Below the pieces are notes generated by a model, which searched no databases, had not been told where the DNA came from, and saw only the letters and a program-made list of their open reading frames with translations. Shown here in pieces: positions 13,872-44,378 of a stretch of 64,000 bases of DNA. Within the stretch, counting starts at the first letter, position 1; each line of letters starts with the position of its first letter. Where the stretch lies: positions 20,237 through 84,236 of the forward strand of contig CAMORN010000002.1 of assembly GCA_946623825.1 (NCBI GenBank), given 5' to 3'. The DNA is from an uncultured Alphaproteobacteria bacterium (GTDB lineage Bacteria > Pseudomonadota > Alphaproteobacteria > Rs-D84). The position numbers and the translations under genes were made by a program.

Positions 13872-13899
13872 AAAAATACCGGCATTTACCGGTATTTTT
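13872..13899. terminator. Bidirectional terminator between convergent dnaG and ychF (ACCGGT-palindrome family)
   Basis: AAAAATACCGG-CATTTA-CCGGTATTTTT: perfect inverted repeat flanked by A and T runs. Related TACCGG elements also at 13809-13850. Confidence 0.6.
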
Positions 13900-13906
13900 T
13901 TATTTT

Positions 13907-14986: not shown

Positions 14987-15005
14987 ATCTTTTCACCAAT
15001 TAAAG

Positions 15006-15752: not shown

Positions 15753-15778
15753 AAAAAATACCCGCGATAAATCGGGTA
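15751..15778 (-). terminator. Rho-independent terminator of rpmJ
   Basis: TACCCG-CGATAAAT-CGGGTA hairpin. On the minus strand it is followed by a run of eight Ts. Confidence 0.5.
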
Positions 15779-15804
15779 TAAAAAACATATCCAATTGGAT
15801 TATA

Positions 15805-15939
15805 TTATTTTTTCTTGAATCCCTGTTTTGCCTTTAATTTAGGATTAGAAGGGTCAATCAAGATAACTTGTTTTCCACGACGGATTTGTTTAACATTTCC
15901 ACGTTTTTTCCAAGCTTTAAGAGAACTTAAAAATTTCAT
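15805..15939 (-). CDS. rpmJ: 50S ribosomal protein L36 (bL36, Cys-less alphaproteobacterial type)
   Basis: A 44-aa ORF absent from the 60-aa ORF track: MKFLSSLKAWKKRGNVKQIRRGKQVILIDPSNPKLKAKQGFKKK. It matches the bL36 pattern MKVxSSLKxxKxRxxxCxIVRRxGRxYVINxxNPRFKARQG. The 82-aa ORF at 15815-16063 (+) is its antisense shadow. Confidence 0.75.
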   Translation of the reverse strand: MKFLSSLKAWKKRGNVKQIRRGKQVILIDPSNPKLKAKQGFKKK

Positions 15940-16200
15940 ATTTAATCCTTTTTACTGGGCAATTATAAACCAGATTTCTAAAAAATCAAATATTTATTAT
16001 AAATTATTGTTGTTTTTGTTTAGGCTGTTTATTTTATTAAAAACTTTTTTCAACTTTTTATAAACAGTTTTTCAACAAAAAAATCAAGGTTTTCTGCTGT
16101 TTTTATAAAAATAAGTGTAAAAAAATCAAAAATATCAACAAGTTGAAAAATATAGACTTTTTAATAAATTTAACAAAATTATAGATTTTTACTTTTATAC

Positions 16201-16229
16201 TTGTTGAAAAAAGTTGAAATTGTTATAAT
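16201..16229 (+). promoter_or_regulatory. Sigma-70-like promoter for virB3-virB4
   Basis: -35 TTGTTG (16201-06), 17-bp spacer, -10 TATAAT (16224-29). RBS GGAGAGG (16244-50) sits 5 nt before the TTG start at 16256. Upstream are repeated TTGTTGAAAAA / CAACAAGTTG inverted-repeat motifs (16068, 16137, 16199). Confidence 0.45.
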
Positions 16230-16255
16230 TACAACATAAGACTGGAGAGGGAATT

Positions 16256-16552
16256 TTGAAACAACGGGTTTTAAAGGCTTTGGCAAATCCACCACGCATA
16301 TTTTATGTGGCTTATAATCTTGCTATGCTGAATTTCTTGTTCTGGTTTATGATATTTGTTGTAACAATGGTTGTTTTTTTGGTTGTGACTAAAAATATTC
16401 CAATGTTGGCACCGCTGATATTTCTTGGGGTATTGTTTATATCACACAGTATTTTGGGAATTTATTCAAAAAAAGAACCACAACTGGCACAAATGATAAT
16501 GTCTGGTTTTAAAATTTTTAAAAGCAGAATACCGGAAAAATTGGTAGTATAA
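16256..16552 (+). CDS. virB3: Type IV secretion system protein VirB3
   Basis: 98-aa protein with two hydrophobic helices, immediately upstream of and coupled to virB4. Size and topology fit VirB3. Confidence 0.6.
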   Translation: MKQRVLKALANPPRIFYVAYNLAMLNFLFWFMIFVVTMVVFLVVTKNIPMLAPLIFLGVLFISHSILGIYSKKEPQLAQMIMSGFKIFKSRIPEKLVV

Positions 16553-16554
16553 AA

Positions 16555-18969
16555 ATGGAATATTTATTTAATTATTTTGCAGGAAATTCAAATTCAATGA
16601 CATTGACATTGGTTATTATTGCGATGTCTGTGTTGTTGGTATTTATTGTTTTGTTGGCTTATATACCGACTTTAACAAAAAGAATTTTACCTGAATTTGG
16701 TTATGCTAGATATTCTGATTATTTACCATTCAAGGGTGTTTATAAAGATGATATTATATCTTTAAATGATGGTTCTTTGGCACGCGCATATAAAATAAAT
16801 GGTGTTCAAACCAGTATAATGGACGATGAAAACCGTGAAAAATTATTAGATTTACGTGCACAATTATTCAATCAAATTCAAGATCCGTCTGTTCATATTC
16901 GTTTTTATACAATTCGTGATAAAGTTGATGAAAAAACAAATTATGAATTTCATCAAAAAACACTGCAAAAAATTTATGATAAATGGAATAACCAAGGATT
17001 ACAGATATTTAATAATTCTTATTATGTTGTTATATCTGTAAATGGTGCGAATAATTATGATAAATTATTGCATTATTCTAATTTTATAGAATCTGTATTA
17101 TCTGTATATAAACCAGTATTATTAAAACACAACAGTTTTGATAACATAGCAACATTATTTGGTCGTATATTATCACCAATAACAAAACCTGTTATTAAAA
17201 AATGTGATAATGATATTTCAGAACTTGTTGCTGTTGATAATGTTTATTTTGGTAAAAATGGAATCATAGAATATTCAAGTGGTGATAAATCTTATTTTGC
17301 ATCTTTGATTTCATTTAAATCAGCACCTGATTTTATGGATGAAGAATTTTTTAATTCTGTATCAACAATACAATGTGAAATGATTTGTATGAACGCATTT
17401 CATGTTTTAAAAGCAAGTGATATTGATTCTATTATAAGACAACATAAATCAACAATCACAGACGGCAGCGAAGATTCCACCATTGAACAAATAGAACAGG
17501 CACAATCTTCTATGGATGAAAATATAACTGGTGCACAAACATTGGTTGATTATTATCCATTATTTATATTATTTGGTTATAATAAAGATGAACTTGAAAA
17601 AAATGTTTCAGAATTCAAGAAAATAGCTGCATCTTTTGGTGTTGCGCCAGTTGTTGAAAATTTTGCAACCAAGGCTTCTTTCTTTTCTCAGATACCTGGT
17701 TTTGATATATTCCCACGCAGTTTCAAGATGTTGTCAAAAACCGCTGCGGTCAGTATACCTTTGTCATCAATGCCACATGGGGTCGCAAACAGTGACTGGG
17801 GTAATGGTCCGTTAGTTATATTCCCAACTGCTCAGGGAACACCATATCAATTTCAATTTCATGTTTCAGATAAACCGGCTGCTGTGGGACATACATTAAC
17901 AATTGGTCCAACTGGTGGTGGTAAAACAACATTGTTCTCGTTTCTTATTGCTCAATCTTTGAGACACCAAAAGTTAAAAGCTTTCTTCTTTGACAGAAAC
18001 AAGGGTGCAGAAATATTTACATTGGCTGTTGATGGTAAATATATAACCATGAATGGTAAAGAAAAAGATGCAAAACAAGATGTATTTTTAACACATTTAA
18101 ATCCATTAAAAATGCCGGATACTGCGGCAAATCGCGCATTTTTAAGACGTTGGTTTGCAATGATTACTGGTCAAAGTGATGTTGTTTCAAGTGATGAAAT
18201 TGCGCGTGCTGTATCTGTGAATTTTGATTATTTGAAAGACGAAGACAGATTATTGAAAAATCTGTATGAAAGTTGTTTTTCAAGTGAAGGTACAATGCGT
18301 GGTGAATTAAAGAAATGGGTTGATCCATTACAATATGGTGATATTTTCAATGAAACCGAAGATACACTTGATTTAAACGCCCGTTTAACAACATTTGATT
18401 TTACAGATATTTTGCAAGATGAAGTTTTAGCACCAGCAGTTATATCTTATATCTTACACAGAATAAATAATACAACTGTATCTGGTGGAAATCCTTCTTT
18501 GATTATGATTGACGAAACCGCACCTATGCTTGAAAACAAAATGTTCCGTGATAATTTCATAGCGGGCCTGCAAGAAGGTCGTAAAAATCGTCAAGCATAC
18601 ATGGTTGCGTTCCAACGCGCGAATGTTCTTGATAAACTTGGTATTGGTGATGTTGTTCGTGGTCAGGCACAAACTGTGTTATTTTTCCGTAATCCTGCGG
18701 CTGATTTAAGTGATTATGAAAAATGGAATTTAAATCCACTTGAAATGGCTTTTATTCAGGGTAAAGCATATCCAAATTTAAAACGCGCAGTATTATTATC
18801 ACGTCCAGTAAACGGGGAATCTGTAATTTTAAATACCGAATTGGGTGGTTTGGGTAATATGTTGCGTTTGTTTGAATCGGGTCGTTCTTCTGTTTTATTG
18901 GCTGAAGAATTATACAGAAATTATGGAAATAATTTTGTTGAAGAATATCTGAAAAAACAAACAATGTAA
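16555..18969 (+). CDS. virB4: Type IV secretion system ATPase VirB4
   Basis: 804 aa with N-terminal TM region, Walker A GPTGGGKTT, and a CagE/TrbE/VirB4 family C-terminal ATPase domain. Confidence 0.9.
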   Translation: MEYLFNYFAGNSNSMTLTLVIIAMSVLLVFIVLLAYIPTLTKRILPEFGYARYSDYLPFKGVYKDDIISLNDGSLARAYKINGVQTSIMDDENREKLLDLRAQLFNQIQDPSVHIRFYTIRDKVDEKTNYEFHQKTLQKIYDKWNNQGLQIFNNSYYVVISVNGANNYDKLLHYSNFIESVLSVYKPVLLKHNSFDNIATLFGRILSPITKPVIKKCDNDISELVAVDNVYFGKNGIIEYSSGDKSYFASLISFKSAPDFMDEEFFNSVSTIQCEMICMNAFHVLKASDIDSIIRQHKSTITDGSEDSTIEQIEQAQSSMDENITGAQTLVDYYPLFILFGYNKDELEKNVSEFKKIAASFGVAPVVENFATKASFFSQIPGFDIFPRSFKMLSKTAAVSIPLSSMPHGVANSDWGNGPLVIFPTAQGTPYQFQFHVSDKPAAVGHTLTIGPTGGGKTTLFSFLIAQSLRHQKLKAFFFDRNKGAEIFTLAVDGKYITMNGKEKDAKQDVFLTHLNPLKMPDTAANRAFLRRWFAMITGQSDVVSSDEIARAVSVNFDYLKDEDRLLKNLYESCFSSEGTMRGELKKWVDPLQYGDIFNETEDTLDLNARLTTFDFTDILQDEVLAPAVISYILHRINNTTVSGGNPSLIMIDETAPMLENKMFRDNFIAGLQEGRKNRQAYMVAFQRANVLDKLGIGDVVRGQAQTVLFFRNPAADLSDYEKWNLNPLEMAFIQGKAYPNLKRAVLLSRPVNGESVILNTELGGLGNMLRLFESGRSSVLLAEELYRNYGNNFVEEYLKKQTM

Positions 18970-18972
18970 TAT

Positions 18973-19587
18973 ATGTTAAAAAAATATCTGATTTTTGTAT
19001 TTTGTTTATTACCAAATCTGGTTTTAGCAGATGATTGCCTTAGTTATAAATTAAATCCAAATATAAATATAAAAACACCATCTTGGTCAAAACAGGTTGT
19101 TCAACCATTACAAAAAATGGATGTTTTACATGGTGATGTTATTGCGACAATGGTTGATAATTATGAATTAACAACAGATATAACATCAATAGAAGATGGT
19201 TTTTGTGTTTCTTTGAAAAGTGTTGATGCAACAATTGGATATTCTGATTTTTTGGTTCAAATTGATTTATCACATAAAAAAAATACTTGTTCATATAATG
19301 CGGTTTTATCACACGAAGACGAACATATTCGTGCTTATTTATCAGTCATAGATGATAACCAAGATTTATTAAAAAAATCGCTGAAATCTGCTGCAATTTC
19401 AATAACACCAATTTTTGTCAGGGAACAAAAAGATATAGATTCTGCGGTTGATAAATTAAATGAAGAATTACAATCTCATCCAGATATAATTTTATTAAAA
19501 CAACACTTGAAAGCCGAAGAAGAAATCCGTAATAAACGCGTTGATCAAAATGACACCGGCGAAAGTTTAAGAAAGTGTTTCTTATAA
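18973..19587 (+). CDS. Secreted hypothetical protein with HExxH-like motif (SHEDEHI), immediately after virB4
   Basis: Signal peptide MLKKYLIFVFCLLPNLVLA; 204 aa. Starts 4 nt after the virB4 stop. HEDEH motif. No confident family assignment. Confidence 0.4.
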   Translation: MLKKYLIFVFCLLPNLVLADDCLSYKLNPNINIKTPSWSKQVVQPLQKMDVLHGDVIATMVDNYELTTDITSIEDGFCVSLKSVDATIGYSDFLVQIDLSHKKNTCSYNAVLSHEDEHIRAYLSVIDDNQDLLKKSLKSAAISITPIFVREQKDIDSAVDKLNEELQSHPDIILLKQHLKAEEEIRNKRVDQNDTGESLRKCFL

Positions 19588-19654
19588 ATCTAAATTTTTG
19601 TAAATAATACTGTTTTATGATAAAATATTCTTGATATATAACAGGGAGTATTTT

Positions 19655-20419
19655 ATGCAAAAATGGGAAAAAGCGCTTGATAAATTTATGCAAGATTATG
19701 TAAATAAACCTTGGTTTGAAGGGGCTGTTTTATGTGGTTCTTATTCAACCGGAAATCAAAATAAATTTTCCGATATAGATGTTGTTATCGTTGGTTCTAA
19801 TGATATAGGTTTTCAGGAAAAATCAAATCGTTATGTTGATGGTTTTTTGATGGAATACACCATAAATCCAATATATAAAGTCCAAGAATATATGAAATCT
19901 GGCAAAGATAAAAACAGAATGATTGATCAATTTATGTATGCATACGGTGTTGTTTTGTATGATAAACATGGTGTTATAAAAAAATTACATCAACAGGCCG
20001 TGCGTGATTTAAAAGCAAAAATAAAACCTTTGTCTAAATATTCTGCTGAATTTGTAAAATATCATTTATGGGACAGATATGACGAATTACAATCATTGAA
20101 TCATGATGGTTTTCACACAGATTTAACATATTGGTCTTTGGTAAAAGAATTGATAGTTGCTTATTATGATTTTAATTGTTTGCCTCATGTTTCTTGGTCA
20201 AAGATAGAAAAAATTTTAACAAATAAAGATTTTGCAAAACGTTATCATGCAGATAAATTGCCAGATAAAAAATTTACAACATTGTTGTTAAATTGTTTTA
20301 ATGCAAAACAGAAAGAAAAAATGTCTGCTATAGATAAATTATATAAACATGTTATGAAATCTGGCGGTGGTTTTGAAATTGGACAATTCCGTGGAAAACA
20401 TAAAATCGAAAAGAGATAA
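19655..20419 (+). CDS. Nucleotidyltransferase-domain protein (Pol-beta superfamily; ANT/Lnu-like minimal NTase with a helical C-terminal domain)
   Basis: GAVLCGSYSTGNQNKFSDIDVVIVGS is the GS...DxD nucleotidyltransferase signature. About 254 aa, the same size and layout as aminoglycoside/lincosamide nucleotidyltransferases. The ORF-track start at 19631 contains the RBS AGGGAG, so ATG 19655 is preferred. Confidence 0.55.
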   Translation: MQKWEKALDKFMQDYVNKPWFEGAVLCGSYSTGNQNKFSDIDVVIVGSNDIGFQEKSNRYVDGFLMEYTINPIYKVQEYMKSGKDKNRMIDQFMYAYGVVLYDKHGVIKKLHQQAVRDLKAKIKPLSKYSAEFVKYHLWDRYDELQSLNHDGFHTDLTYWSLVKELIVAYYDFNCLPHVSWSKIEKILTNKDFAKRYHADKLPDKKFTTLLLNCFNAKQKEKMSAIDKLYKHVMKSGGGFEIGQFRGKHKIEKR

Positions 20420-20430
20420 AAGGAAATAAA

Positions 20431-21195
20431 ATGATAACCAATGCTTTTGATAGTTCTACACCAGCAATTATAAATCCAAGAGAAAATTCAAATGCTGTTG
20501 TTGTTGATGCGTGTATCATAACTTTTTCATATAAAATAGAAGAATATGTTTTATCACACTTTAAACCAAAACAAATTGGTGAAATTCATTTTGCTACCGG
20601 TATAACACCAATATGGATGATAGAAAGAAATGGTAAAAAATTTGCATTTTTTAAAACTTATGTTGGGGCGCCTGCATGTGTTGGTTCTATTGAAGATTCT
20701 TTAGGTGAAATTAAAACAAAAAAATATGTTCTTTTTGGTGGTGCTGGTTGTTTAAATAAAGAAATTGCACGCGGTAAAATAATGATTCCAAATGCAGCAT
20801 GGCGTGATGAAGGAACTTCTTATCATTATATGCCTACAAGCGATTGGGTTGATGTTCCTAATTATAAAAAAGTATGTAAATTCATGGAACAAAGCAAATT
20901 ACCGTTTGTTATTGGTAAAACATGGACAACAGATTCATTCTATCGTGAAACACGTGGTAATTTTGAAAAACGCAAGACAGATGGTTGTATAAGTGTTGAA
21001 ATGGAATGTGCTGGTGTTCAGGCAATGTGTGATTTTCGTGAACTTGATTTTTATGTATTCTTTACAAGTGGTGATTTATTAGATGCACCTGAATGGGATA
21101 ACAGACATAGTTTTGATGGAACAGAAACAGGTTCCCAGCATGATGCACAACATTTTGAAATTGCACTTGAATTAGCAGAATTTATAAGTAAATAA
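20431..21195 (+). CDS. PNP/UDP-family nucleoside phosphorylase-like protein
   Basis: LFGGAGCL and VEMECAGV motifs correspond to the phosphate-binding and EMEsAA motifs of purine/uridine phosphorylase family 1; 254 aa. Confidence 0.6.
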   Translation: MITNAFDSSTPAIINPRENSNAVVVDACIITFSYKIEEYVLSHFKPKQIGEIHFATGITPIWMIERNGKKFAFFKTYVGAPACVGSIEDSLGEIKTKKYVLFGGAGCLNKEIARGKIMIPNAAWRDEGTSYHYMPTSDWVDVPNYKKVCKFMEQSKLPFVIGKTWTTDSFYRETRGNFEKRKTDGCISVEMECAGVQAMCDFRELDFYVFFTSGDLLDAPEWDNRHSFDGTETGSQHDAQHFEIALELAEFISK

Positions 21196-26770: not shown

Positions 26771-27082
26771 ATGAAAAAATTATTATTACTGTCTTTATTT
26801 TTGGGCGCGTGTGCAACAACGGTACCTGAACAAGATAATGGTATTGTCAGATTGACCAGCGAACCAAAAAATTGTGAATATTTGTATAATGTTGATACAA
26901 CAATGACATCTTACAATGTAAAAGATGCCTATGAATTCCTTGAAAAAAGAATAATTGAACAAGATGGTCTGGGGGATACTTACTATATCACAGGCGAAGA
27001 AATTTTGAATAACGAAGGCGCAATATTTGGTCCAAAAAACACCTTTAAAATCAAATCAAAAGTTTATAAATGCAAAAAATAA
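26771..27082 (+). CDS. Small lipoprotein (hypothetical)
   Basis: Signal peptide with lipobox FLGAC; 103 aa. RBS AAGGAGGAAAG upstream and a terminator (27084-27110) downstream. Confidence 0.4.
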   Translation: MKKLLLLSLFLGACATTVPEQDNGIVRLTSEPKNCEYLYNVDTTMTSYNVKDAYEFLEKRIIEQDGLGDTYYITGEEILNNEGAIFGPKNTFKIKSKVYKCKK

Positions 27083-27172: not shown

Positions 27173-28423
27173 ATGATTAAGCAAATTATAACAGTTCATC
27201 ATAAAAAATTTGCGACAGGTCTATTTTGGCAACCTGTCAGTGTTGGTAATACAGCCTTTAATTATGCGAGACAACTGGCAAAAAATACAAAATATACACT
27301 GTTCACAGAATATAAATCTATGGTTGGTTTAACCAATGCAAGAAACGGTGCACATTTTTCGATGCCAAGTGCAGCTGCAGAAATTGTTGAACATTTTGCA
27401 GATTTAATTTCTTTCTTGGGTGTATTTCAGGCGGATAATGGTTTTTATTTGGTTGCGGTGCGTAATGGAATTATTATTCGTGATATTTTGATAGAATCTG
27501 AAACAAATGCCCGTGAAATTTATACTGAATTGTCAAATATACCTGATTGGGGTGCTTTGTTTGCGCCTGCGTCTTGGGGAATGCCTCGTTCTCAGGAAAA
27601 ATTTTTATCAGACATTATTCAAAATAACAATGTTGCGAGATTACGCAATATCAGTATCGTAAAATCTTTATTACCATCTATCTTTTTCATTGCGATTTTC
27701 GTGGTGGCATTCGTTTCGTTTTTATATTCACCAATGGGTAAAAGTATTATGCCACGCAAACGGGTAAATATAGATCCTGAATTAGCAGCAGAATACAAAC
27801 GCCAAATTGAATTAAAAAACAAAGAATTAGATGAACAATTCAATATTGTTAAGAAAGAAGTTGAACCATTAAATCGTCCATACGAACATTTACCAGATGT
27901 CATGGAACGCGCAAATTTGTGCTACAAGGCGATTGCTTTTGTTATGCAACCAGTTTCTGGTTGGAATCAGACATATACAAAATGTGATGAAAAATATGTA
28001 ACTGCTACATTTAAACGCGATTTTGGAACATTAAATGATTTTTATGATATTGGTTCTGAATTATTCCCAGGCGCGGTTGTTCAACAATTGTCTGAAAACG
28101 AAATATTGGTTCGTGTTATGTTGCCTGAATTAAAAACAGTTTCTTCTTTAGATGAACGCGATCAGGTCAGTGCTATGCGCGACATTACAACCAATTTCCA
28201 ACAAATAAACACTAAATTGCACATAAATGGTGTTTCGGATACTGTATCAAATGGGGAAGAAACCGAAAAATTAAATGTTATAGAGGTTTCTGCATCATCA
28301 AAAATGATACCGACTGAATTTATGAATGTGTTTAATGATTTTGGTGGTGTTTATATGACATCTGTAAATTGGAACGCAAACACAAGAACATGGAATTACG
28401 AAGTAATTGTTTATACAAAATAA
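27173..28423 (+). CDS. Bitopic inner-membrane protein; candidate type IVb pilus accessory protein (R64 PilO / BfpC / GspL-like)
   Basis: About 190-aa cytoplasmic N-domain, a single TM (LLPSIFFIAIFVVAFVSFLY), and an approximately 200-aa periplasmic C-domain. Size (416 aa) and position (immediately before a PilP-like protein, the ATPase and the platform) match R64 pilO-pilP-pilQ-pilR. A -10 TATAAT lies at 27149-54 and the RBS GAAGAGAGA precedes ATG 27173. Confidence 0.35.
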   Translation: MIKQIITVHHKKFATGLFWQPVSVGNTAFNYARQLAKNTKYTLFTEYKSMVGLTNARNGAHFSMPSAAAEIVEHFADLISFLGVFQADNGFYLVAVRNGIIIRDILIESETNAREIYTELSNIPDWGALFAPASWGMPRSQEKFLSDIIQNNNVARLRNISIVKSLLPSIFFIAIFVVAFVSFLYSPMGKSIMPRKRVNIDPELAAEYKRQIELKNKELDEQFNIVKKEVEPLNRPYEHLPDVMERANLCYKAIAFVMQPVSGWNQTYTKCDEKYVTATFKRDFGTLNDFYDIGSELFPGAVVQQLSENEILVRVMLPELKTVSSLDERDQVSAMRDITTNFQQINTKLHINGVSDTVSNGEETEKLNVIEVSASSKMIPTEFMNVFNDFGGVYMTSVNWNANTRTWNYEVIVYTK

Positions 28424-28439
28424 AAAAAGGAAAAATAAG

Positions 28440-29087
28440 ATGATTAATAAAATTCAGAAAATATTGTTATCAGTGTTGATTATATTTGGTTTTTCTGTCC
28501 CATCTTTTTCAGAAGAATTTATCGAAGAAGAAATTATCACAGAAGAAAATGCAGACCAAATATCTGCTGATGCGTTAAATAATTATGAAGTGAACGGTTC
28601 TTTGTTTGAAAGAATAACAACATTGGAACAAGAAAAAGTTGTTATGCAACTTGAAAAAGAAAGGGCACAGCTTGATTTAGAATTGGAAAGATTAAATGCT
28701 GAAAAAATAAAAATTCAAATGGAATTGGATACTTTGTCTGGGCGTGCAGAACAACAACAGCAAGAATTGGAAGCAACCAAGGCACAATTGGAAGCGCAAA
28801 CTGAAAAATTAAAACGTCAACTGGAAGAAGTAGAAGAAGAAAAACCTGTTGAAAGACCAACAAAAAAAGTTGTAGAAGGTGGTTTATCAAATCAATATAA
28901 ATTGGTTAATGTTATTGGTATTGGTAATCAATTACAGGCAACACTTGAAGAAGTTGCGACTGGTCAAAATAAACGCGTAAGTGTTGGTAAACAAATTGGT
29001 GGTTATATTGTAAAAAGCATTTCTTTAAATGACGGTATTATTTTTGAAAAAGACGGTCAGGAAGAAAACATAAATATTGGAAAATAA
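28440..29087 (+). CDS. PilP/GspC-like periplasmic protein (N-terminal anchor, coiled coil, C-terminal beta domain)
   Basis: N-terminal hydrophobic helix, acidic stretch, and a long coiled coil (LEKERAQLDLELERLNAEKIKIQMELD...). The C-terminal approximately 70 aa (YKLVNVIGIGNQLQATLEEVATGQNKRVSVGKQIGGYIVKSISLNDGIIFEKDG) resembles PilP/GspC homology-region domains. Confidence 0.35.
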   Translation: MINKIQKILLSVLIIFGFSVPSFSEEFIEEEIITEENADQISADALNNYEVNGSLFERITTLEQEKVVMQLEKERAQLDLELERLNAEKIKIQMELDTLSGRAEQQQQELEATKAQLEAQTEKLKRQLEEVEEEKPVERPTKKVVEGGLSNQYKLVNVIGIGNQLQATLEEVATGQNKRVSVGKQIGGYIVKSISLNDGIIFEKDGQEENINIGK

Positions 29088-29088
29088 T

Positions 29089-30717
29089 ATGCCAAACAAA
29101 GATGATAAATTTTTAACAGATGTTTCATCAAAACCGTCAATTCCGGCGGGACTTGAAAACGCAAACAGTAAAGATATTATTGATTATTTGTTTTCTAATC
29201 AAAACAGATTATTAACATCTTCCGTGGGTGAATTGGCTTTGCCGAAAGACACACAAAGTTTGATTGCATATTTTTCAAGTGGCGAAATTATTATTTCCAG
29301 AACACACAGATACGATGGTCGTGTTATTGCGTTTATAGATTTATTGCGTCAGAAAAATAAATTGATGAAACAACCTTTTTATTCTGATTTAGGTTTAATA
29401 TCAAACATTTATAAATATAACGACGAAAGGGTTGGCGGAATACATGCGCGTCCTGACTATGATAACCAGATGCAGAAAGATTTTGTTGATATTATTGCAC
29501 GTGCTGCATCGCAAAAGGTTTCTGATATTCACATAGAGGTCGCAGACCAAACAACAATTTATTTCCGTATAGATGGCAGTATGCAACCGGTTCTTGAATA
29601 CAATTCACAATGGGGTGAATCTTTCGTTCGTGCGGCGTTTGCATCGGCTGATATTTCTAATTCGAGTTATGCACAAAACGAATATCAAACCGCCCAGAAA
29701 GATGGACGAACACCATTGCGTGGAACAAAAGATTTATATTTGCCAAATGGTGTGTTGGGTATTCGTATGCAATTTAATCCGATTGCGTTTGGTTCGCAAT
29801 ATGTGGTTATGCGTTTGTTATATGATAACCCAAGCGAAGGTATAAAAACCGAACAAGAATTTAATGAATATGAACAAAAATTATTGATGCGTTTGCGTTC
29901 TGCACCAACTGGATTGGTTGTTGTTGCGGGTCCTACATCTTCTGGTAAATCTACGACATTGGTTCGCAATATGGCGTTGATGTTGAAAGAAAAAAGATAT
30001 GAAATAAATCTTATTACTGTGGAAGATCCTGCGGAACAAAAGATTTTTGGCGCACATCAAATGCCGGTTGTTAACACAACGAACGAAGAACAACGCGAAG
30101 AAAAATTTACAGAAGCCCTTGCGGCTGCTTTGCGAAGCGACCCTGATACATTAATGGTCGGTGAAATCAGAACATTATCTGCGGCGCAATTGACGGTCAA
30201 GGGCGCATTGTCTGGTCATAATGTGTGGACAACATTGCACGCTAATTCTGCGATGGGCGCGTTGACCCGTTTGTTGGATATGGGCGTGGAAGCTTTCAAA
30301 TTAAAAGATGAAACAATGATGCGTGGTTTGGTTTCTATGCGTTTATTTAAAAAATTGTGTCCACATTGTCGTGAAAGATTACTGGATAAAAGAAATCATC
30401 CGTCATATAACCGTGTTCGTGAAACATTGGGTGATTTAGGGTTGGCGCAAACATATGTTCGTGGTGTTGGTTGCGAATATTGTAATGGCACCGGAACAAT
30501 TGGTCGTGTCAAGGCGGGTGAAATTATTATCACAAACAGTGAATTTTTATCGCTTGCGCTGGCGGGGGAAACAGAAAGCGCAGTGAAATATTGGCTTGAA
30601 AAAATGAACGGACGAACACTGAAAGAATCTGCAATTGAATTGATGTTGCGTGGTATTATCGGTGTTGATGAATTGGAAGACAGGGTTGGTTTATTAGACA
30701 GACCATGGGTATATTAA
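29089..30717 (+). CDS. GspE/PilB/TcpT-family secretion ATPase
   Basis: Walker A VVAGPTSSGKSTTL, Asp box/Walker B, His box (MVGEIRTLSAAQL...GHNVWTTLHANSA), and a C-terminal tetracysteine motif CPHC...CEYCNGTG as in GspE/PilB. ATG 29089 directly follows the upstream stop. Confidence 0.85.
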   Translation: MPNKDDKFLTDVSSKPSIPAGLENANSKDIIDYLFSNQNRLLTSSVGELALPKDTQSLIAYFSSGEIIISRTHRYDGRVIAFIDLLRQKNKLMKQPFYSDLGLISNIYKYNDERVGGIHARPDYDNQMQKDFVDIIARAASQKVSDIHIEVADQTTIYFRIDGSMQPVLEYNSQWGESFVRAAFASADISNSSYAQNEYQTAQKDGRTPLRGTKDLYLPNGVLGIRMQFNPIAFGSQYVVMRLLYDNPSEGIKTEQEFNEYEQKLLMRLRSAPTGLVVVAGPTSSGKSTTLVRNMALMLKEKRYEINLITVEDPAEQKIFGAHQMPVVNTTNEEQREEKFTEALAAALRSDPDTLMVGEIRTLSAAQLTVKGALSGHNVWTTLHANSAMGALTRLLDMGVEAFKLKDETMMRGLVSMRLFKKLCPHCRERLLDKRNHPSYNRVRETLGDLGLAQTYVRGVGCEYCNGTGTIGRVKAGEIIITNSEFLSLALAGETESAVKYWLEKMNGRTLKESAIELMLRGIIGVDELEDRVGLLDRPWVY

Positions 30718-30720
30718 GAT

Positions 30721-31791
30721 ATGAATAAATTAGATTTGCTGTATGCAAAACTGGTTTTTAGAACAAATACTGATAAACGTATGGCGATTTCAAGAAAAAT
30801 CGCATCTCTGCTTCGTAATAATTTTACATTGATGGACGCGTTGCACCGTATTGAAATGATAGAATCATTTGACGGACGAAAACCAAATGAACCATTTGCA
30901 ATCGCAATGCGTGAAATTCAACAGAACCTTGAAAAAGGTATGACTTTCAGCGAGGCCACACGTGGTTGGGTTCCAAATGAAGAAACATTGCTTTTAATGT
31001 CTGGTAATGTGTCCAGTTTATTGGTTTCGCTTGAAAATGTATCGCGTGTTGTTGGTGGTATCAGAAGAATTAAACGCGCAATGTGGTCTGCGTTGGCATA
31101 TCCATTATTTTTGTTTTTATTGACGATTGGTATAATTATTATGGTTGGAATATATCTTGTTCCACCATTGGCACAAGCGGCGGGCAGCGATATTATATGG
31201 CGTGGCACGGCGGCGTCCCTGATATGGGTATCAGATTTTGCAAATAAATATTGGTATGTTTTTGCAGCCGGATTGGTTGGGGTGATATCTGTTGTATGGT
31301 TATCTTTGCCAATATGGACGGGAAAATTAAGAACCATGTTTGATAAATTACCACCATGGAATATTTATAAATTACAAACATCTGTTGGTTGGTTAATGTC
31401 ATTGGCTGCAATGGTGTCTGCGGGTGTGTCTGTGCCGGACGCGTTGCGTTTATTGATGGATTCATCAAACAGATATTTATCAAATATATTGGAAGAAACC
31501 CTGCATTATATTGCAAACGGTGAAAATTTGGGTTCTGCGCTGGCGTTGACTGGGAAAGATTTCCCAAATGGTGAAATCGTTGGCGATTTGATGATATATT
31601 CAGATATGAATGATTTCGCACAAAATCTGGACGATATCGCAAATGATTATATGGAAGAATCAGTTCGCCGTATGGAATCTATATCAAGTGTTTTAAACAG
31701 CATTGGTATTATATTAGTATCAATTATTATTGGGTGGATAGTTTTGGGCACTTTCCAGATGCAGGAACAAATCACCGCCGTTTTGATGTAA
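30721..31791 (+). CDS. GspF/PilC/TcpE-family inner-membrane platform protein
   Basis: 356-aa polytopic protein directly after the ATPase, with T2SS-F-like helical cytoplasmic segments alternating with TM helices. Size matches the type IVb platform proteins TcpE, BfpE and R64 PilR (about 340-365 aa). Confidence 0.55.
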   Translation: MNKLDLLYAKLVFRTNTDKRMAISRKIASLLRNNFTLMDALHRIEMIESFDGRKPNEPFAIAMREIQQNLEKGMTFSEATRGWVPNEETLLLMSGNVSSLLVSLENVSRVVGGIRRIKRAMWSALAYPLFLFLLTIGIIIMVGIYLVPPLAQAAGSDIIWRGTAASLIWVSDFANKYWYVFAAGLVGVISVVWLSLPIWTGKLRTMFDKLPPWNIYKLQTSVGWLMSLAAMVSAGVSVPDALRLLMDSSNRYLSNILEETLHYIANGENLGSALALTGKDFPNGEIVGDLMIYSDMNDFAQNLDDIANDYMEESVRRMESISSVLNSIGIILVSIIIGWIVLGTFQMQEQITAVLM

Positions 31792-32044
31792 ATAAAATTT
31801 ACTTGTAAAAATTTTTCTAAAATTGCTATGATAAAAATGTCGATAAAATTTTTTATCGGTGGGGTGTAGTAACCCGTTTAAAACAGCGTCGTAAAGCAGA
31901 CGAAAAATGCCTCCAACTTGAATAATGGTTGGAGGGTCGTGATATACATAAATAAACGGCACAATTTCTGTTTTAATTGTTACTAACCTCCAACCACCAA
32001 ATGTTTATGGTGGTTTTCTTGTTAAAAAAAGAAAGGGAGTAACC

Positions 32045-33268
32045 ATGTCACAAAAAATCTTTTTAACATCCGCGCTTGCGATGGGCGTGATAGCACCGGC
32101 ATTTGCGGAACCATCACATACGGGAACATTCCCAGCCGACGGCTATATGGAAGAAGATTACACATATACCAACGCGGCAACTGCAGACAACATGGACAGC
32201 GTATATGAAGGAACCGTAGATGCAGTCGCGGAATACGAAGATGTATTATATCAAATCGTCGCGGGACAATATTTACCGGCGGGCGCAGAATCACCAATAG
32301 ATTGTGATCAATCTGGTTATTTCTGTGCTGGTGTGCAAAATGGTGTTTATTATGACGCAAATAATAATCAGGGACTTACATCATGTTCGGATGCGACAAA
32401 CGGCGCATATACATTATCCGCCGGAACTGGTGACAGCGTAAATTCATGTTATCGTACATGTACAAATTCGGATGTTGCACATTCAACGGGAACAATGAAC
32501 GGTGGCTATTATTATGGTAATAACAACCAATGTGGCGCAACATCTTGCGTTAACGGATGGCATTTGAAAACCAGCATGAGCGGCGGCGAATTAGTAACCG
32601 CAATTGGTACAGGCGCCGGTGAAAACAGTGCTCATATTAAGGCAGACGGTACATTTGGTGAACAAAACTTTGATGGTCAGGGAGAAAAGGGGCAATCATA
32701 TTATGGCTTAACCGACAATAACACATGGGCGGTAGATTACGGCACCAACGGAATGTTGGTTGGTCAGGCTCGTTGTTCTACACAAGCAGGTGATAATAAT
32801 GGTGCTACATGGACAAACCCAACAATAACATCAAGTTTAACAGATGAAACCGGTCAAGCGGGGGCACAATATTGTTATTGTAATGTGACGGGATATAAAG
32901 GTACGGACGGCACCATGCAGAGCTTGTCCGCCCCTTGGGTGTTCTACGAAGGCTTCAGCGGTGGCGAGTCGGCTTGCGCATACGGCTGCGCTAACGACTG
33001 TGCGAGCATCTTGCGTATCACGGACTCGTCCTTCCTCGCGTTCCGTGCTGCGTTGTTGGGATCCGTTCAATCAAGTCCAGCGATGTGTGAGGCAAATGTT
33101 ATCAACATTAATTGGTCGAATGCAGATGCAGCTGATGTTATTGCAAACAATGCGGGTACCGCCACATACGGAAGTGATGTTCGTACCCCTGTTAAGGCAC
33201 AGACCATTAAGGGTAAAACATTCCGTGGTTGGCGTTTCAGCAAACCAGAACAAACCAATTTGCCATAA
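32045..33268 (+). CDS. Secreted Cys/Gly/Thr/Asn-rich protein of unknown function, compositionally foreign
   Basis: Sec signal peptide MSQKIFLTSALAMGVIAPAFA-EP; 407 aa with more than 20 Cys and almost no Lys/Ile, unlike the rest of the proteome. Its DNA is 45-60% GC against a 30-33% background, with GC-rich third codon positions. RBS AAGGGAG. It lies just downstream of the secretion ATPase and platform genes. Confidence 0.5.
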   Translation: MSQKIFLTSALAMGVIAPAFAEPSHTGTFPADGYMEEDYTYTNAATADNMDSVYEGTVDAVAEYEDVLYQIVAGQYLPAGAESPIDCDQSGYFCAGVQNGVYYDANNNQGLTSCSDATNGAYTLSAGTGDSVNSCYRTCTNSDVAHSTGTMNGGYYYGNNNQCGATSCVNGWHLKTSMSGGELVTAIGTGAGENSAHIKADGTFGEQNFDGQGEKGQSYYGLTDNNTWAVDYGTNGMLVGQARCSTQAGDNNGATWTNPTITSSLTDETGQAGAQYCYCNVTGYKGTDGTMQSLSAPWVFYEGFSGGESACAYGCANDCASILRITDSSFLAFRAALLGSVQSSPAMCEANVININWSNADAADVIANNAGTATYGSDVRTPVKAQTIKGKTFRGWRFSKPEQTNLP

Positions 33269-33314: not shown

Positions 33315-33377
33315 AAAAAGGGTTCCTTTCCCTTTTTTGTTCCTGAAAAAAATACCGGTGTTTACCGGTATTTTTAT
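33315..33377. terminator. Two tandem terminator hairpins between convergent genes
   Basis: AAAAAGGG-TTCCTTT-CCCTTTTTT (33315-33338) and AATACCGG-TGTTTA-CCGGTATTTTT (33346-33377, ACCGGT family). Confidence 0.55.
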
Positions 33378-33388
33378 TATCTTTTTAT

Positions 33389-33958
33389 TTAAGCCATAAA
33401 TGGCAGGTTTTCAAGCGTTCCTTCTGTAACCCTTACATTTACGTCTATCAGCATGAAAACTGAATCTGGGGACGTTTTTGTGTTTTCTGGGAATATATCT
33501 GTTGATAATAAATGGCTGGTGTTGACGGTCAATTTTGTAACCAAATGGTCGTCGTCTAACAGAGTATAAATTGGTCCAACATCATGAGGGGTATTTTGAC
33601 CGATTTCATGTTCGTTTTGTGGACAACGCAACCCGTCCAATATTGTTTTGACACGGTTATCTATGTCTGAACGTGGAACACCAACAATTTCAGGGTGCAT
33701 CAACAAAATATCTAATTCTGCAATCATTTTCAGGTTTGATGTAATGATTGGGTTAAAATCTATACCGCCGATATGACGGGTTATAATCGGGCTTTTTGTA
33801 GCGTCAGGCATCATAAATTTAGACAAATTGTTCCATGGTTGGAAATTCAGCAATTTCTTTAATTGTGGGTGAAATTGCATGCGGATATCCGCAATATGTT
33901 GGGCGCGTTTTTTCGGATTTGTTAAAATATCGCCATAGTAAAGTAATTTAAATTTCAT
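33389..33958 (-). CDS. RusA-like Holliday-junction resolvase superfamily protein with N-terminal extension
   Basis: PRSDIDNRVKTILDGL matches the RusA catalytic block RRRDLDNLQKAAFDAL (DxDNxxKxxxDaL). The downstream LLDDDHLVTKLTV matches the RusA WLDDAQVVDYRVV block. 189 aa. Confidence 0.45.
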   Translation of the reverse strand: MKFKLLYYGDILTNPKKRAQHIADIRMQFHPQLKKLLNFQPWNNLSKFMMPDATKSPIITRHIGGIDFNPIITSNLKMIAELDILLMHPEIVGVPRSDIDNRVKTILDGLRCPQNEHEIGQNTPHDVGPIYTLLDDDHLVTKLTVNTSHLLSTDIFPENTKTSPDSVFMLIDVNVRVTEGTLENLPFMA

Positions 33959-40490: not shown

Positions 40491-43400
40491 CTATTTTGCA
40501 TTGTTTGCTTGTTCTATAGTTTCTTGGATAATTGCAGAAGCAATTTGTTTTTTCTGTTCTTCTGAATATTCGTGATTCGCCATTATTTCTGCCAGACGTT
40601 CAGATGCTTTTTTCCAAACTTTTTTAGCAGAATCTGTTTTTGCCTTGGCAAGTTTCTTCTTGGCAAGTTTAGCAGCATAATCAGCAGATGTTACATCTTC
40701 TGCTGTTGTGTCGCCGAATCCTTTGAAAAATGCAGATATTGCTTGGCCAAAGCGTCTTGCTTTTGTTTTTTGACCATCTGCTTCTATGCCTGCAACTTTT
40801 GTTTTGCCACGTGCAGTTGTTGCAGCTACATTTGCGGCACCTTGTGCTTCTAATATTCTTAATTTATTTTCTAATTCAGCCAATTTCAAACGGGCGTCCA
40901 TTGCGCTTTTACCACCCATGCTTTTGAATTTTTCAACTTCTTTTTCTAATAAATCAAGTTCTGCCAAACGACGGTCTGTGCTGTGTTGTTGGCCCATATC
41001 TTCCATTTTGAATTGTGCGCGCAATTCAATAATCTTTTTACCGATTTTGCCCATGGCTTTTTCGTCCAGATGAGCAATTGCAACACCATCTTTCAAAGAT
41101 ACATCTGCAAGATCTTCAATGCTTATGTCTTTGTATTCTTTGTTTAAAGCCTTTATGCCACGTGCGCGTTCAATGGCGCGTTTGTTTTTTGCTTTTACGT
41201 CTTCTATTTTCATTTGGTTTACTCCTTGTTGTATTTGTAGGTTAATATTATGAATTCCTTTTATAGTTTTTTGTGTACCGTGATACACGGATTGCATTAT
41301 TTTATAAGTTATATCTTTACATCTGCCGAAAAATCCGCGTTTTGCAGGTTTTTCTTCTGGTTCGTTTCCATCATTTGGTTTTGGTGGATTAACAATCACA
41401 GGTGTTTCTGGTTGTATATTTTCCGTTGGTGGCATTATAACAATACCGTCAGAAGGTCTGGCAACATTTCGTGGAATATCAGGTCTTTCATCAGTTTGTG
41501 TATTTTGGGTTCCGTCTATTTGATGATCAATTCTGTCGCCACGATCAGCCAATGCACCCGCGCGTTCACGCATACGGGTTAAATATTCATCAGGTACAAC
41601 ACGTGGTTCATATATTCCAAATGTTCCAATTCCAGCAGGGAAAGCCAATTCGTTTGGTGTAAATATACTGGTGGTTTCATTGGTTATGATTGGAATATCG
41701 TTAAATACCTGACCTGAATGTTCAACATATGTTGAATAAACATCATTTCCAGGAATCAAAACACCATTTGCATCGTATGTTGCGTTTGCTGGTAAATCAT
41801 AATTTACCGGTGCGTTTGGAATATATCCAACGGTGTTTATAGCAGAAATGTGTGGATTAAAATGTTCAAACGCTGCGAGTGCTTCTGGTGATAAATTTAT
41901 TTCAGAACCATTTATGGAACCACGTAACGCAGATAATGCATCTGAATCTAGGCCGATATTATGGAAATAACCATTCCCAAGATTATGGTCTGTTGCGTCA
42001 TGCCATGCTAATAAATAGCGAACTGCGTCATCATGGCTTAAACCTGCGTTCATTAAACCGCTAATTCTGGTGTCAAAAGATTGTTGTGTTTCCCAATTAT
42101 TATTCAACATCATTTCTTCGTGATGTTCAATAACACCATCATTATAAACGCGTTGTGTTGTTTCGGTTTGATTTATTGTTGTATGTTCTGTTTTGAATAA
42201 TGTTGAATCTGTGTTTTCGTTCACATAGTTTATAACACCATTCATGGCCCAACGACCAAACAAACCACCAGCGACCACAGAACCAGATACAGCCAAAGCG
42301 CCAGCCAATGCCTGACCACGGGTATAGCCAGAATTTATTGCGTCTTTATATGTCATAACACCAGATGATGTTCCGCCAACTGCCATTGCAGACAGGCCAA
42401 ACGCACCTGCTAATTCAGGGTTCCCTGTTGCCATACTGATTACAGCGGCAACACCCAAACCAGATGTTAAAGCCGGTCCCCAATTTCGTTTATCTGAAAA
42501 GAATTCTTTTATACCATGTGGTTTTCCTGCTTTCTTTTGTTCACGACGCCATTTAAATCCCTGAACAATCATATTGCCGATACCCAGTGTTGTTCCAATT
42601 GCGGCGCCTGCATATGCGATACCGGTTGCTTTTCCTATGAATGTAAGTCCAGCAGATACGGCGGTAGCAGTCAGGAAATTTTTCAAAGAACGACGAAAGA
42701 AACTGATTTTCTTTTTACGACCATCAGCACCGGTTTTTTCTGTTCTTGTTTTTGATAATTTATCAATATCATTAACAGCTTCAAAAGGACGCATAACAAT
42801 TTTTTTATCATTGCCGACATGTTCTGCCATCATTCCTGCAAAACCAGCAGCCTGATTAACCTGAGCGTCCAATGCGTCTTGATAACCTTCGTCTGTTATT
42901 TCTCCGCCATCTGTTTTAATAGAATCCCAAAATTCATCAACTTCCTGTTGGGTCAAAGGCTTGTGTTCTGCAACCCCAGAAACACTTTGGTCAGGCACAG
43001 ATATCTCCGCCATTTTCCATGGGATAGATTCTGATAATTCAGATTCAAGATTTATATCTTTAACTTCTGTTTCAAGGTCGCCCACATTTCGCATATTTAC
43101 ATCTGTTTTTGCCAATGATATTATGCGATTTAATCTGCCGTTCGGGTCCAATTTATACCCCGGTTTAAATTCAGATTGTGTTTTTCCGTTTTCATCTAAA
43201 AATTGAGGAATCGGTTTACCATTTTCGTCTAAAAACTTGTATTTAGATAATGTTGATAATATTTCATCGTTTATTTCAACATCTTTTAATGAATTTGCAA
43301 TTTCTTGCCAACGTTTATCCAGTTTTTCAGCATCTTCCGGTTTTAAATTTTTCAGATTCCACATATCTGAATACAAAGATACAATTTCTTCAAGACGAGC

Positions 43401-44228
43401 GAGAGATTCTGATATATTTTGTCTGACGGTTTCTTTGTATTTTTTTGTTGTATTATTGTCGGTTGTTTTTTCGCGGACATCTTTTTCGCGAATCTGACAC
43501 ATTTTGCGGTATCCAGCATAAACATCTGCAATATTTGATGGGTCAGAATAAAAATAATCAACTTTCTTTGCAAAATTATTTATCAGATAATCAATGCGTT
43601 TCGCCAATGTTAAAAATCTGTCTGCTGCATCTTTGTTGTTTTTGTCTTTCATATATTGTTCACGAGCAAACAGATACGCATCTGTTAAAATTTTTGGTGG
43701 AACCAATTCGAATAATTCATTGTTGCCAACAACTAAAGATATAAAATTATTTGCATATTGTTGACGTTGTGTTTCTGTCATATTTACAGAATTTATAAGT
43801 TCTGCGACCTGATTTGGAGTCAGATTTTTTTCGTCTGTATCAGACGGAATTAAACCCATGTCACGCAGAATACCCAAAGAAATTAAATCAAATTTAATCT
43901 GGTTTTGGTCCGATGTCAGCGAAAAAATTCTTTGATTATCAGCCGCGTTTTCTGCGTTTTCCAATGAATCAATAATTGATTGATATTTTGCCATTGCGCG
44001 TGCGCCAATTTCATTCAGGACATTATTTCCGTCTGCATCTTTTGTCATACAGCAAGTTTCTATGATTTTTTGCAATTCTGGCAACGCAGATTGTTCAATA
44101 TCAATTTTTTCATTAATAAAATTATCAAGTAATCTGTTAGCTATTTCGATAGATTCTTCGCGTGAATCTGGGGACGAATACATATCTAGAATTTCTTGTA
44201 ATCTAGATTTAGTATATACTAGTTGCAT
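40491..44228 (-). CDS. Large (about 1245 aa) hypothetical membrane protein with extended coiled-coil regions and a central Gly/Ala-rich multi-TM block
   Basis: Central segment ...TAVSAGLTFIGKATGIAYAGAAIGTTLGIGNMIVQG...LGVAAVISMATGNPELAGAFGLSAMAVGG...ALAGALAVSGSVVAGGLFG has 4-5 predicted TM helices. Long heptad-rich N- and C-terminal regions. The likely start is MQLVYTKS (ATG at 44228) with RBS AAAGGA; the ORF-track N-extension up to 44318 contains a TATAAT box. Confidence 0.5.
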   Translation of the reverse strand: MQLVYTKSRLQEILDMYSSPDSREESIEIANRLLDNFINEKIDIEQSALPELQKIIETCCMTKDADGNNVLNEIGARAMAKYQSIIDSLENAENAADNQRIFSLTSDQNQIKFDLISLGILRDMGLIPSDTDEKNLTPNQVAELINSVNMTETQRQQYANNFISLVVGNNELFELVPPKILTDAYLFAREQYMKDKNNKDAADRFLTLAKRIDYLINNFAKKVDYFYSDPSNIADVYAGYRKMCQIREKDVREKTTDNNTTKKYKETVRQNISESLARLEEIVSLYSDMWNLKNLKPEDAEKLDKRWQEIANSLKDVEINDEILSTLSKYKFLDENGKPIPQFLDENGKTQSEFKPGYKLDPNGRLNRIISLAKTDVNMRNVGDLETEVKDINLESELSESIPWKMAEISVPDQSVSGVAEHKPLTQQEVDEFWDSIKTDGGEITDEGYQDALDAQVNQAAGFAGMMAEHVGNDKKIVMRPFEAVNDIDKLSKTRTEKTGADGRKKKISFFRRSLKNFLTATAVSAGLTFIGKATGIAYAGAAIGTTLGIGNMIVQGFKWRREQKKAGKPHGIKEFFSDKRNWGPALTSGLGVAAVISMATGNPELAGAFGLSAMAVGGTSSGVMTYKDAINSGYTRGQALAGALAVSGSVVAGGLFGRWAMNGVINYVNENTDSTLFKTEHTTINQTETTQRVYNDGVIEHHEEMMLNNNWETQQSFDTRISGLMNAGLSHDDAVRYLLAWHDATDHNLGNGYFHNIGLDSDALSALRGSINGSEINLSPEALAAFEHFNPHISAINTVGYIPNAPVNYDLPANATYDANGVLIPGNDVYSTYVEHSGQVFNDIPIITNETTSIFTPNELAFPAGIGTFGIYEPRVVPDEYLTRMRERAGALADRGDRIDHQIDGTQNTQTDERPDIPRNVARPSDGIVIMPPTENIQPETPVIVNPPKPNDGNEPEEKPAKRGFFGRCKDITYKIMQSVYHGTQKTIKGIHNINLQIQQGVNQMKIEDVKAKNKRAIERARGIKALNKEYKDISIEDLADVSLKDGVAIAHLDEKAMGKIGKKIIELRAQFKMEDMGQQHSTDRRLAELDLLEKEVEKFKSMGGKSAMDARLKLAELENKLRILEAQGAANVAATTARGKTKVAGIEADGQKTKARRFGQAISAFFKGFGDTTAEDVTSADYAAKLAKKKLAKAKTDSAKKVWKKASERLAEIMANHEYSEEQKKQIASAIIQETIEQANNAK

Positions 44229-44378
44229 ATGTAAAAATCCTTTCTTTCGTTGACTCCGTTTGTGCTTCTTTTCTCTCCCCTTGCGATATATTATACACTT
44301 TTTTAGGTCTTTATTCAAGTATGTTGAAATACATAATATAGGTTTATATATAATTAAAAATCTGGTATAATACGCGGT

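Follow-up and report, generated by a model that had tools for sequence, protein, structure and literature searches.

A type IVb-class pilus assembly core and a probably independent cassette with a structured leader RNA in Candidatus Enterousia (Rs-D84)

The window analysed here is a 64,000-nt stretch of DNA from an uncultured alphaproteobacterium of the lineage Candidatus Enterousia (Rs-D84), and the feature under study lies at positions 27173-33268 of it. Five open reading frames (ORFs), all on the + strand and encoding proteins of 416, 215, 546, 356 and 407 aa, occupy this segment. A preliminary description, made from the sequence alone, had listed the same five co-directional genes at the same coordinates; it took the first four for a type IVb pilus-like secretion module and the fifth for its dedicated substrate. 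We suggest that the locus probably holds two independent things side by side, namely a type IVb pilus core and a self-contained cassette made of a promoter, an attenuator-like leader and a surface-protein gene. The features are as follows.

27173..28423, +: PilO2, a bitopic protein in the inner membrane of type IVb pilus systems, analogue of BfpC and GspL (416 aa)
28440..29087, +: PilP, periplasmic, with an N-terminal anchor, a coiled coil and a C-terminal beta domain (215 aa)
29077..30717, +: PilQ-type extension ATPase of the GspE/PilB superfamily, BfpD-like (546 aa; T2SSE, E=3.4e-66)
30721..31791, +: PilR-type inner-membrane platform of the GspF/PilC family (356 aa; T2SSF, E=2.4e-26, two domains)
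31803..31832, +: promoter-like site for the cassette, TTGTAA-18-TATGAT with TG (consensus scan)
31839..32025, +: structured 5' leader RNA, 187 nt (fold z, covariance-model score of 148.8 bits, covariation)
32045..33268, +: gene for a hypervariable protein of 407 aa, predicted to be Sec-exported, rich in disulfides and either surface-located or secreted
33348..33375, no strand: terminator-like palindrome with a 12-bp stem and flanking A- and T-runs, between the convergent 407-aa gene and orf189

Profile searches with Pfam were made on about 45 window proteins, and 1.38 Mb of lineage DNA was screened in addition; this DNA is redundant, about half of it being the same locus in 35 genomes. The exact platform protein (PilR) was found in sheep-rumen metagenomes. 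A genome scan yielded the 35 loci, all from metagenome-assembled genomes labelled Candidatus Enterousia or 'Alphaproteobacteria bacterium', and the source samples are ruminant, horse and other animal gut. Candidatus Enterousia (Rs-D84) comprises abundant uncultured gut and rumen Alphaproteobacteria with genomes of less than 1 Mb; the order has neither a TCA (tricarboxylic acid) cycle nor a respiratory chain, and dependence on partner cells is thought likely (PMC12306168). The endosymbiont-like genome supposed in the preliminary description agrees with this reduced, partner-dependent state.

The pil core

The 416-aa protein matches PF06864 (PilO) with E=1.3e-13 and 51 bits against a cutoff of 26.7, and the NCBI name of its orthologs is 'type 4b pilus protein PilO2'. 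The 215-aa protein stands where PilP stands in the operons of Methylovorus, Bosea and an E. coli plasmid. The window copy scores below the cutoff of TIGR03021 (pilP_fam; E=2e-5, 25.6 bits against 34.65), and TIGR03021 is the top family of all 15 of the 15 PilP orthologs (best 3e-11). Alignment of these orthologs to the single Methylovorus PilP with hhalign is weak (E=0.004, probability 8%), hence the assignment of PilP rests on TIGR03021. About 85 residues of PilP between the membrane anchor and the beta domain, with many E, Q, K and L among them, form a coiled coil that is far longer than in the 148-aa Methylovorus protein and could span the periplasm.

In PilQ the Walker A motif, the Asp box, the Walker B motif and the His box are intact, and so is the C-terminal tetracysteine CPHC...CEYC, already recognised as a Cys4 motif in the preliminary description. 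The best solved relative of PilQ is BfpD (8dze), which is matched over residues 38-538, i.e. in full length, with E=1.6e-74, whereas GspE reaches only 2.7e-45. PilR has three transmembrane segments. We assign the first four genes to an R64/BFP-class type IVb pilus assembly core with the order pilO-pilP-pilQ-pilR. This is the order proposed before, and the matches to PF06864, T2SSE and T2SSF, together with TIGR03021 in the PilP orthologs, bear it out.

The R64-type thin pilus operons, found on plasmids or integrated conjugative elements (Methylovorus pMsip01, Bosea pBSY19_1 and an E. coli plasmid), contain the same four families in the same order, with the ATPase 33-37% and the platform about 33% identical to those of the window. 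BfpC, BfpD and BfpE of enteropathogenic E. coli and PilO2 of Burkholderia pseudomallei are also among the closest known systems. Unlike the thin pilus operons, the window core is chromosomal, lies between lpxC and gyrB and has a PilP with a much longer coiled coil. The reference operons also carry a TcpQ-like protein, the secretin PilN, the pilins PilS and PilV, a PilT-like ATPase, PilM, an A24 prepilin peptidase and a lytic transglycosylase.

The ATPase and the platform also score with the GspE and GspF models, as would be expected if the module were a part of a canonical type II secretion system (T2SS) or Tad system with its other genes elsewhere. However, these scores fall far below the equivalog cutoffs (224 bits against 630 for GspE and 67 against 424 for GspF), BfpD is a much better match to the ATPase than GspE, and the CpaF/TadA scores of the window ATPase are weak. 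PilO2 and PilP, moreover, are families specific to type IVb (T4b) pili. Neither pseudopilins nor GspD were found by Pfam in the window or by tblastn and motif scan in the 1.38 Mb. We consider a canonical T2SS or Tad origin, which the preliminary description had kept in view, extremely improbable.

The gene order acyltransferase-lpxK-lpxC-small lipoprotein-pilO-pilP-pilQ-pilR-slot-orf189(-)-gyrB recurs at every locus; the pil core is conserved between lpxC and gyrB in 35 genomes and its ORFs are intact in all 35. Median identity is 85% for PilQ (32 genomes) and 78% for PilR (35 genomes), so that conservation is no lower than that of LpxC (75%) and LpxK (73%). Against the closest genome dN/dS is 0.03 for pilQ, 0.05 for pilR, 0.07 for pilO and 0.20 for pilP, and 0.05 and 0.02 for the housekeeping neighbours lpxC and gyrB; the values of pilQ, pilR and pilO (0.03-0.07) equal those of lpxC, lpxK and gyrB. 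The pil core is chromosomal, vertically inherited in Candidatus Enterousia and under strong purifying selection, and because of this selection we regard it as functional and not decaying.

The opposite reading, that the four pil genes are decaying and without function, left over from a lost pilus system or an integrated conjugative element, can draw on the reduction of the genome (PMC12306168) and on the absence of a pilin, prepilin peptidase, secretin, PilM, PilT-like ATPase and lytic transglycosylase from the locus and the sampled DNA. It is very improbable in view of the intact ORFs, the housekeeping-level dN/dS and the intact catalytic motifs of the ATPase, and the context is also one of housekeeping genes, with no integrase or transfer genes nearby in the Pfam search of the window. 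Decay into pseudogenes, named in the preliminary description as an outcome that would speak against its proposal, is contradicted by ORFs intact in 35 genomes and by dN/dS of 0.03-0.20 over the four genes.

The search for the missing pilus parts extends the earlier remark that no prepilin, prepilin peptidase or secretin is adjacent: none is present in the whole 64-kb window (Pfam on the window proteins and a prepilin motif scan). When 33 reference T4b proteins from three operons were used as tblastn queries against the 1.38 Mb, only PilO2, the ATPase and the platform were found. No match in this DNA was obtained with five reference pilins, with the A24 prepilin peptidase or with three secretin and three TcpQ-like references. 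The prepilin motif scan of the same DNA gave no credible candidate; the same scan recovers eight prepilins in three reference loci. PilM, the PilT-like ATPase and the lytic transglycosylase of the reference operons were likewise seen neither at the locus nor in the sampled DNA. The filament subunit, the prepilin peptidase and the outer-membrane channel would have to be encoded elsewhere or be non-canonical. A short T2SSE ATPase near a paralog of the 407-aa gene (loci L170 and L171) was considered as a PilT-like retraction ATPase and rejected, as it is VirB11.

By homology with known systems, the PilQ hexamer would dock on the cytoplasmic BfpC-like domain of PilO2 and turn the platform PilR. 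The ferredoxin-like periplasmic domains of PilO2, together with PilP, would connect toward the outer membrane, with the coiled coil of PilP as the link across the periplasm. The pil core is a stripped-down chromosomal variant of a known machine, not previously discussed in this lineage: type IV pili are not reported for Rs-D84 in the published genome survey (PMC12306168), and we found no description of the module in this lineage in the literature. Being under housekeeping-level constraint in a small genome, the core is a concrete candidate for the partner-cell interface.

The slot after pilR and the Cys-rich protein family

The interval between pilR and orf189, which in the window contains the 407-aa gene, is an insertion hot spot. 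It is empty in 17 of the 29 informative genomes, where the gap is 34-204 nt, and filled with unrelated cargo in seven, including non-secreted proteins and a small helix-turn-helix (HTH) gene. A member of the Cys-rich family of the 407-aa protein, or a distant relative, sits there in the remaining five and in this window. Even in the closest genome, in which the flanking proteins are 97-99% identical and the leader 95-100%, the positional ortholog of the slot protein has 61% aa identity. Nucleotide identity along the slot gene is a mosaic ranging from 42 to 93%, with 42-65% stretches and 92% islands. Its dN/dS is 0.41, and its dN is 0.29 against 0.01-0.04 for the flanking genes, about 30-fold that of pilQ.

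The 407-aa protein starts with a Sec-type signal peptide and contains 3.4% Cys, 12% Gly, 9.8% Thr, 7.6% Asn and 11.8% Ala, so the earlier characterisation as a Cys/Gly/Thr/Asn-rich protein with a signal peptide is confirmed by the measured composition. Its AF2 model has a pLDDT of 75 with a core above 90, and no solved fold or solved-protein sequence in the Protein Data Bank (PDB) was matched by it; TcpF and CofJ were not matched either, provided that their structures are in the database copy searched. The window protein is also below every Pfam threshold, that of PF09479 included. Most likely it is an adhesin-like protein, at the surface or secreted, that is exported by Sec, carries disulfide bonds and varies antigenically.

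The preliminary description called the gene compositionally foreign, GC-rich in a 30% GC genome. The gene is indeed GC-rich (0.467), but the window background is 33.5% and not 30%. Foreign origin as the meaning of this bias has been rejected: high GC is common to all paralogs, its main driver is codon position 2 (GC2 of 0.51, about 0.5 in the family), and the rise at codon position 3 is moderate. The high GC of the Cys-rich genes appears to reflect a Gly/Ala/Thr/Cys-rich composition and not recent import.

The family is large. We found 273 homologs, with several on one contig; at 50% identity the family falls into 1,427 clusters, and giant members reach 6,218 aa with many tandem modules. The members share the signal peptide, the N-terminal 60 aa and 14 conserved Cys around a variable centre, and the conserved C-terminal module of about 60 aa has a weak likeness to Flg_new (PF09479). 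Sixteen out of 44 members match PF09479 weakly (best 6.5e-4), and the C-terminus of the giant relative P0243 scores 28.1 bits against a cutoff of 27. With this C-terminal match and the tandem modules of the giant relatives, the family resembles surface proteins with the Flg_new, or Listeria-Bacteroides, repeat. Conserved ends and a mosaic centre are shared with these and with multigene families of variable surface proteins. Differences from the Flg_new proteins are the Cys-rich core domain without a matched fold and the host, a diderm alphaproteobacterium. The Cys-rich family has the look of a set of variable adhesins or antigens of gut symbionts.

None of the ten paralogs whose neighbourhoods we inspected is beside pil genes. 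The neighbours are instead yidC with virB8-10, a trxB-like gene, PPDK, an inositol phosphatase with a PBP (penicillin-binding protein) gene, RNase E/G, clpB, a tRNA methyltransferase (twice) and ompA/parB. In two related genomes that share the PPDK-nrdD-clpB synteny (loci L045 and L169), the Cys-rich gene follows PPDK/MORN in one and clpB in the other; these differing positions indicate repeated independent insertion or relocation of family members. At L171 a prophage-like block (11919-20975; T7-type capsid, Phage_capsid_2, tube, terminase) lies directly 3' of a Cys-rich paralog. Near another paralog, at L046 (1627-8252), there are five consecutive genes for proteins of 410-480 aa with no Pfam match, which may constitute another lineage-specific family.

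In the window, the promoter-like site, the leader with its terminator, a ribosome-binding site (RBS), the coding sequence and the final terminator mark the 407-aa gene as its own predicted transcription unit. This bears on the proposal of a pilus-type (T4b/T2SS-like) secretion system with the 407-aa protein as dedicated substrate, in the manner of TcpF, which is encoded after tcpE. Like TcpF of Vibrio cholerae and CofJ of enterotoxigenic E. coli (ETEC), the 407-aa protein has a Sec signal peptide and its gene is the next one behind the platform gene, the place of pilins or secreted factors in T4b operons. Secreted-protein genes are in the slot in six genomes, and apart from a VirB type IV secretion system (T4SS) the sampled DNA showed no further route of export through the outer membrane. 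Unlike tcpF and cofJ, however, the gene has no conserved position (after pilR in 5/29 informative relatives, the slot being empty in 17/29 relatives with an intact pil core and filled with unrelated cargo in 7/29). It is one of many dispersed paralogs, it has its own predicted promoter, leader and terminators, and its protein has no sequence or fold likeness to any solved protein searched. A secretin or pseudopilin was not found in the sampled DNA. The absence of conserved linkage between the 407-aa gene and the pil genes weakens the proposal, and we now regard a dedicated substrate as quite unlikely. The adjacency of the pil core and the slot cassette is probably not a functional operon link, and separating the two removes a tempting but probably wrong annotation as a secretion system plus its substrate.

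The leader RNA and the reading of the whole locus

The 253 nt between pilR and the 407-aa gene are strongly structured, with a fold z of -5.08 against shuffles (-5.1 when rounded), which confirms the own structured leader noted in the preliminary description. The leader has the following elements.

within 31839-32025, +: 5' hairpin
31867-31871 with 31981-31985, +: long-range helix, TAGTA with TACTA
31878-31886 with 31968-31976, +: linker TTAAAACAG, pairing with CTGTTTTAA in the loop of a later hairpin
within the leader, +: CGTC/GACG hairpin
31910-31935, +: CCTCCAAC/GGTTGGAGG hairpin
31987-31995, +: second CCTCCAACC
31992..32022, +: terminator-like hairpin AACCACC...GGTGGTT with a T-run, the 3'-terminal element of the leader, ending 22 nt short of the start codon

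Instances in gut metagenomes were collected with a search pattern of three leader elements; at least 120 were found (loci L047-L166, a lower bound), and 104 non-redundant ones among the matches listed were aligned. RNAalifold finds five helices in this alignment. The cells of these helices are paired in 96.4% of cases, compared with 83.4% in column shuffles (reached in 0/500) and 36-52% in slid-partner controls, and the covariation score is 0.376 against 0.144 in shuffles (0/500). The long-range helix 31867-31871/31981-31985 is paired in 99%, with three or four Watson-Crick types per position, and one pair of the terminator stem is A-U in 50, G-C in 36 and G-U in 14 of the 104 leaders. Alignment-independent support comes from the duplex of linker and loop, which is more stable between cognate than between non-cognate partners (-9.15 against -5.26 kcal/mol; 0/500 permutations). 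The leader is a real structured RNA. No family of Rfam 15 matches it (best E=0.26 on the window copy), and 20 diverse instances searched against Rfam gave nothing but one sub-threshold match to sRNA-Xcc1 (32.5 bits, cutoff 53). It is absent from Rfam and apparently undescribed; the literature yielded no account of it in this lineage. It is the most novel item of the analysis.

Among the matches listed, the leader is always 5' of an ORF and in one orientation, mostly 40-60 nt from the ATG, and most of the 104 aligned leaders have a TAnAAT box 6-10 nt before them. In the same set, 81 of the 103 distinct downstream ORFs have signal-peptide-like N-termini and belong to many families, and about six others encode small XRE-like HTH proteins. 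One such HTH gene lies in the slot after pilR (L030, 11350-11738) and others behind leaders at L050, L059, L092 and L105; it may be a regulator that belongs to the leader regulon. The covariance model R1 finds one leader in the window, further copies in the pilR slot of L004, L010, L030 and, weakly, L020, and one upstream of a paralog at a different locus, L039, where the leader is also conserved; all its matches lie in front of genes. Five other paralog loci have no leader by this model. The idea of a leader on every paralog was rejected, as the covariance model finds only the pilR-slot copies and that at L039.

The scattering of leader-bearing genes over variable insertion points, including the hot spot, could also mean that the leader is primarily an element of the DNA, a mobile repeat or an attC-like cassette recombination site, and not a regulatory RNA. 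Read from the sequence, the hairpin arms YYYAAC/GTTRRR resemble integron core sites, and the sub-threshold match to sRNA-Xcc1 is to an integron-cassette RNA. The fixed orientation and spacing before an ORF, the -10 box just upstream and the U-tailed terminator at the 3' end argue against such an element, and in the long-range helices pairing persists between wholly different sequences and includes numerous G-U pairs, which the opposite strand would turn into A-C. Beside the copies in genome-derived loci whose genes were listed there is no integrase, and most paralogs are without the leader. We consider a DNA-level element, and the attC/integron reading in particular, unlikely given the orientation, spacing, promoter, terminator and G-U pairs.

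As a regulatory RNA, the leader most likely works as a transcription-attenuation switch. In the scheme that we infer, the invariant GGUUGGAGG would have two alternative partners, the upstream CCUCCAAC and the second CCUCCAACC directly adjoining the terminator stem, and the long-range helices would hold the leader in one of these pairings in response to a signal. A promoter-proximal multi-helix fold, covariation, long-range pairing, a U-tailed terminator-like hairpin shortly before the RBS and complementary segments that could compete for pairing are features that the leader has in common with transcription-attenuating riboswitches and leader RNAs. What sets it apart from attenuating riboswitches is its regulon: in place of metabolic or transport genes there are those of secreted or surface proteins and of small XRE-like regulators. 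Standing before more than 100 different secreted-protein genes, the leader may matter more than the pil core: it defines a testable surface-protein regulon and is a candidate for a new class of riboswitch or attenuator.

Several points weigh against our reading of the locus as two independent things. A secreted protein is encoded after pilR in six genomes, which a hot spot can account for, though not as proof. T4b systems secrete Sec-exported proteins such as TcpF and CofJ, and a general export role for the core is possible. A core without pilin, peptidase and secretin could not build a classical pilus, and the search for these parts covered redundant DNA and not whole Enterousia genomes. On the side of the leader, CCUCCAAC, GGUUGGAGG and CCUCCAACC were part of the search pattern, which by itself accounts for some of their invariance, and the switch mechanism is deduced from the sequence.

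A more far-reaching possibility is that the four proteins act as an orphan motor which exports or displays the Cys-rich surface repertoire, co-switched by the riboswitch-like leader class. Enterousia-type symbionts would then have stripped a type IVb machine of its classical pilin, peptidase and secretin, and the result would be a system dedicated to controlling and exporting the 'surfaceome' in a life dependent on partners. We regard this as a long shot. Two independent neighbours, the pil core and the leader-bearing cassette, remain the probable reading.

Neighbouring genes and VirB loci

Two further genes flank the segment.

26771..27082, +: small conserved lipoprotein of 103 aa with the lipobox LGAC, upstream neighbour of pilO2
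33389..33958, -: orf189, at the far edge of the variable slot and outside the pilus module

The small lipoprotein gene is upstream of pilO in all 31 loci that reach that far (33-93% identity), and its dN/dS is 0.13. No Pfam or NCBIfam family was found for it, and Pfam gave no match even with 14 orthologs; its membership in the pilus module is uncertain. In one subclade (L025, 713-1675; L027, 5343-6332; L036, 5141-6136) a gene resembling those of outer-membrane proteins is inserted between it and pilO, coding for 320-331 aa with a signal peptide and the C-terminus ...GLRFEF, an outer-membrane beta-barrel signature. The product of orf189 has no Pfam match in the profile search and looks cytoplasmic, and the gene is among the most conserved of the region (median identity 87%, dN/dS 0.02).

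The remaining genes of the window are housekeeping genes and virB3/virB4-like genes. The latter lie at 16256-19587, with a virB3-like gene (98 aa), virB4 (804 aa, PF03135) and a 204-aa ORF. Other VirB genes of the lineage are virB8/9/10 at L041 (10322-14944) and virB11 at L170 and L171. It would seem from these genes that the lineage has a VirB type IV secretion system of the Rickettsiales kind, with its genes scattered.

At 46354-46827 the window has a 157-aa ORF with an Mtd_N domain (E=9e-12), the N-terminal domain of the major tropism determinant of phages with a diversity-generating retroelement. It adjoins large ORFs without a Pfam match at 40491-44318 (-, 1275 aa) and 44379-46229 (616 aa).

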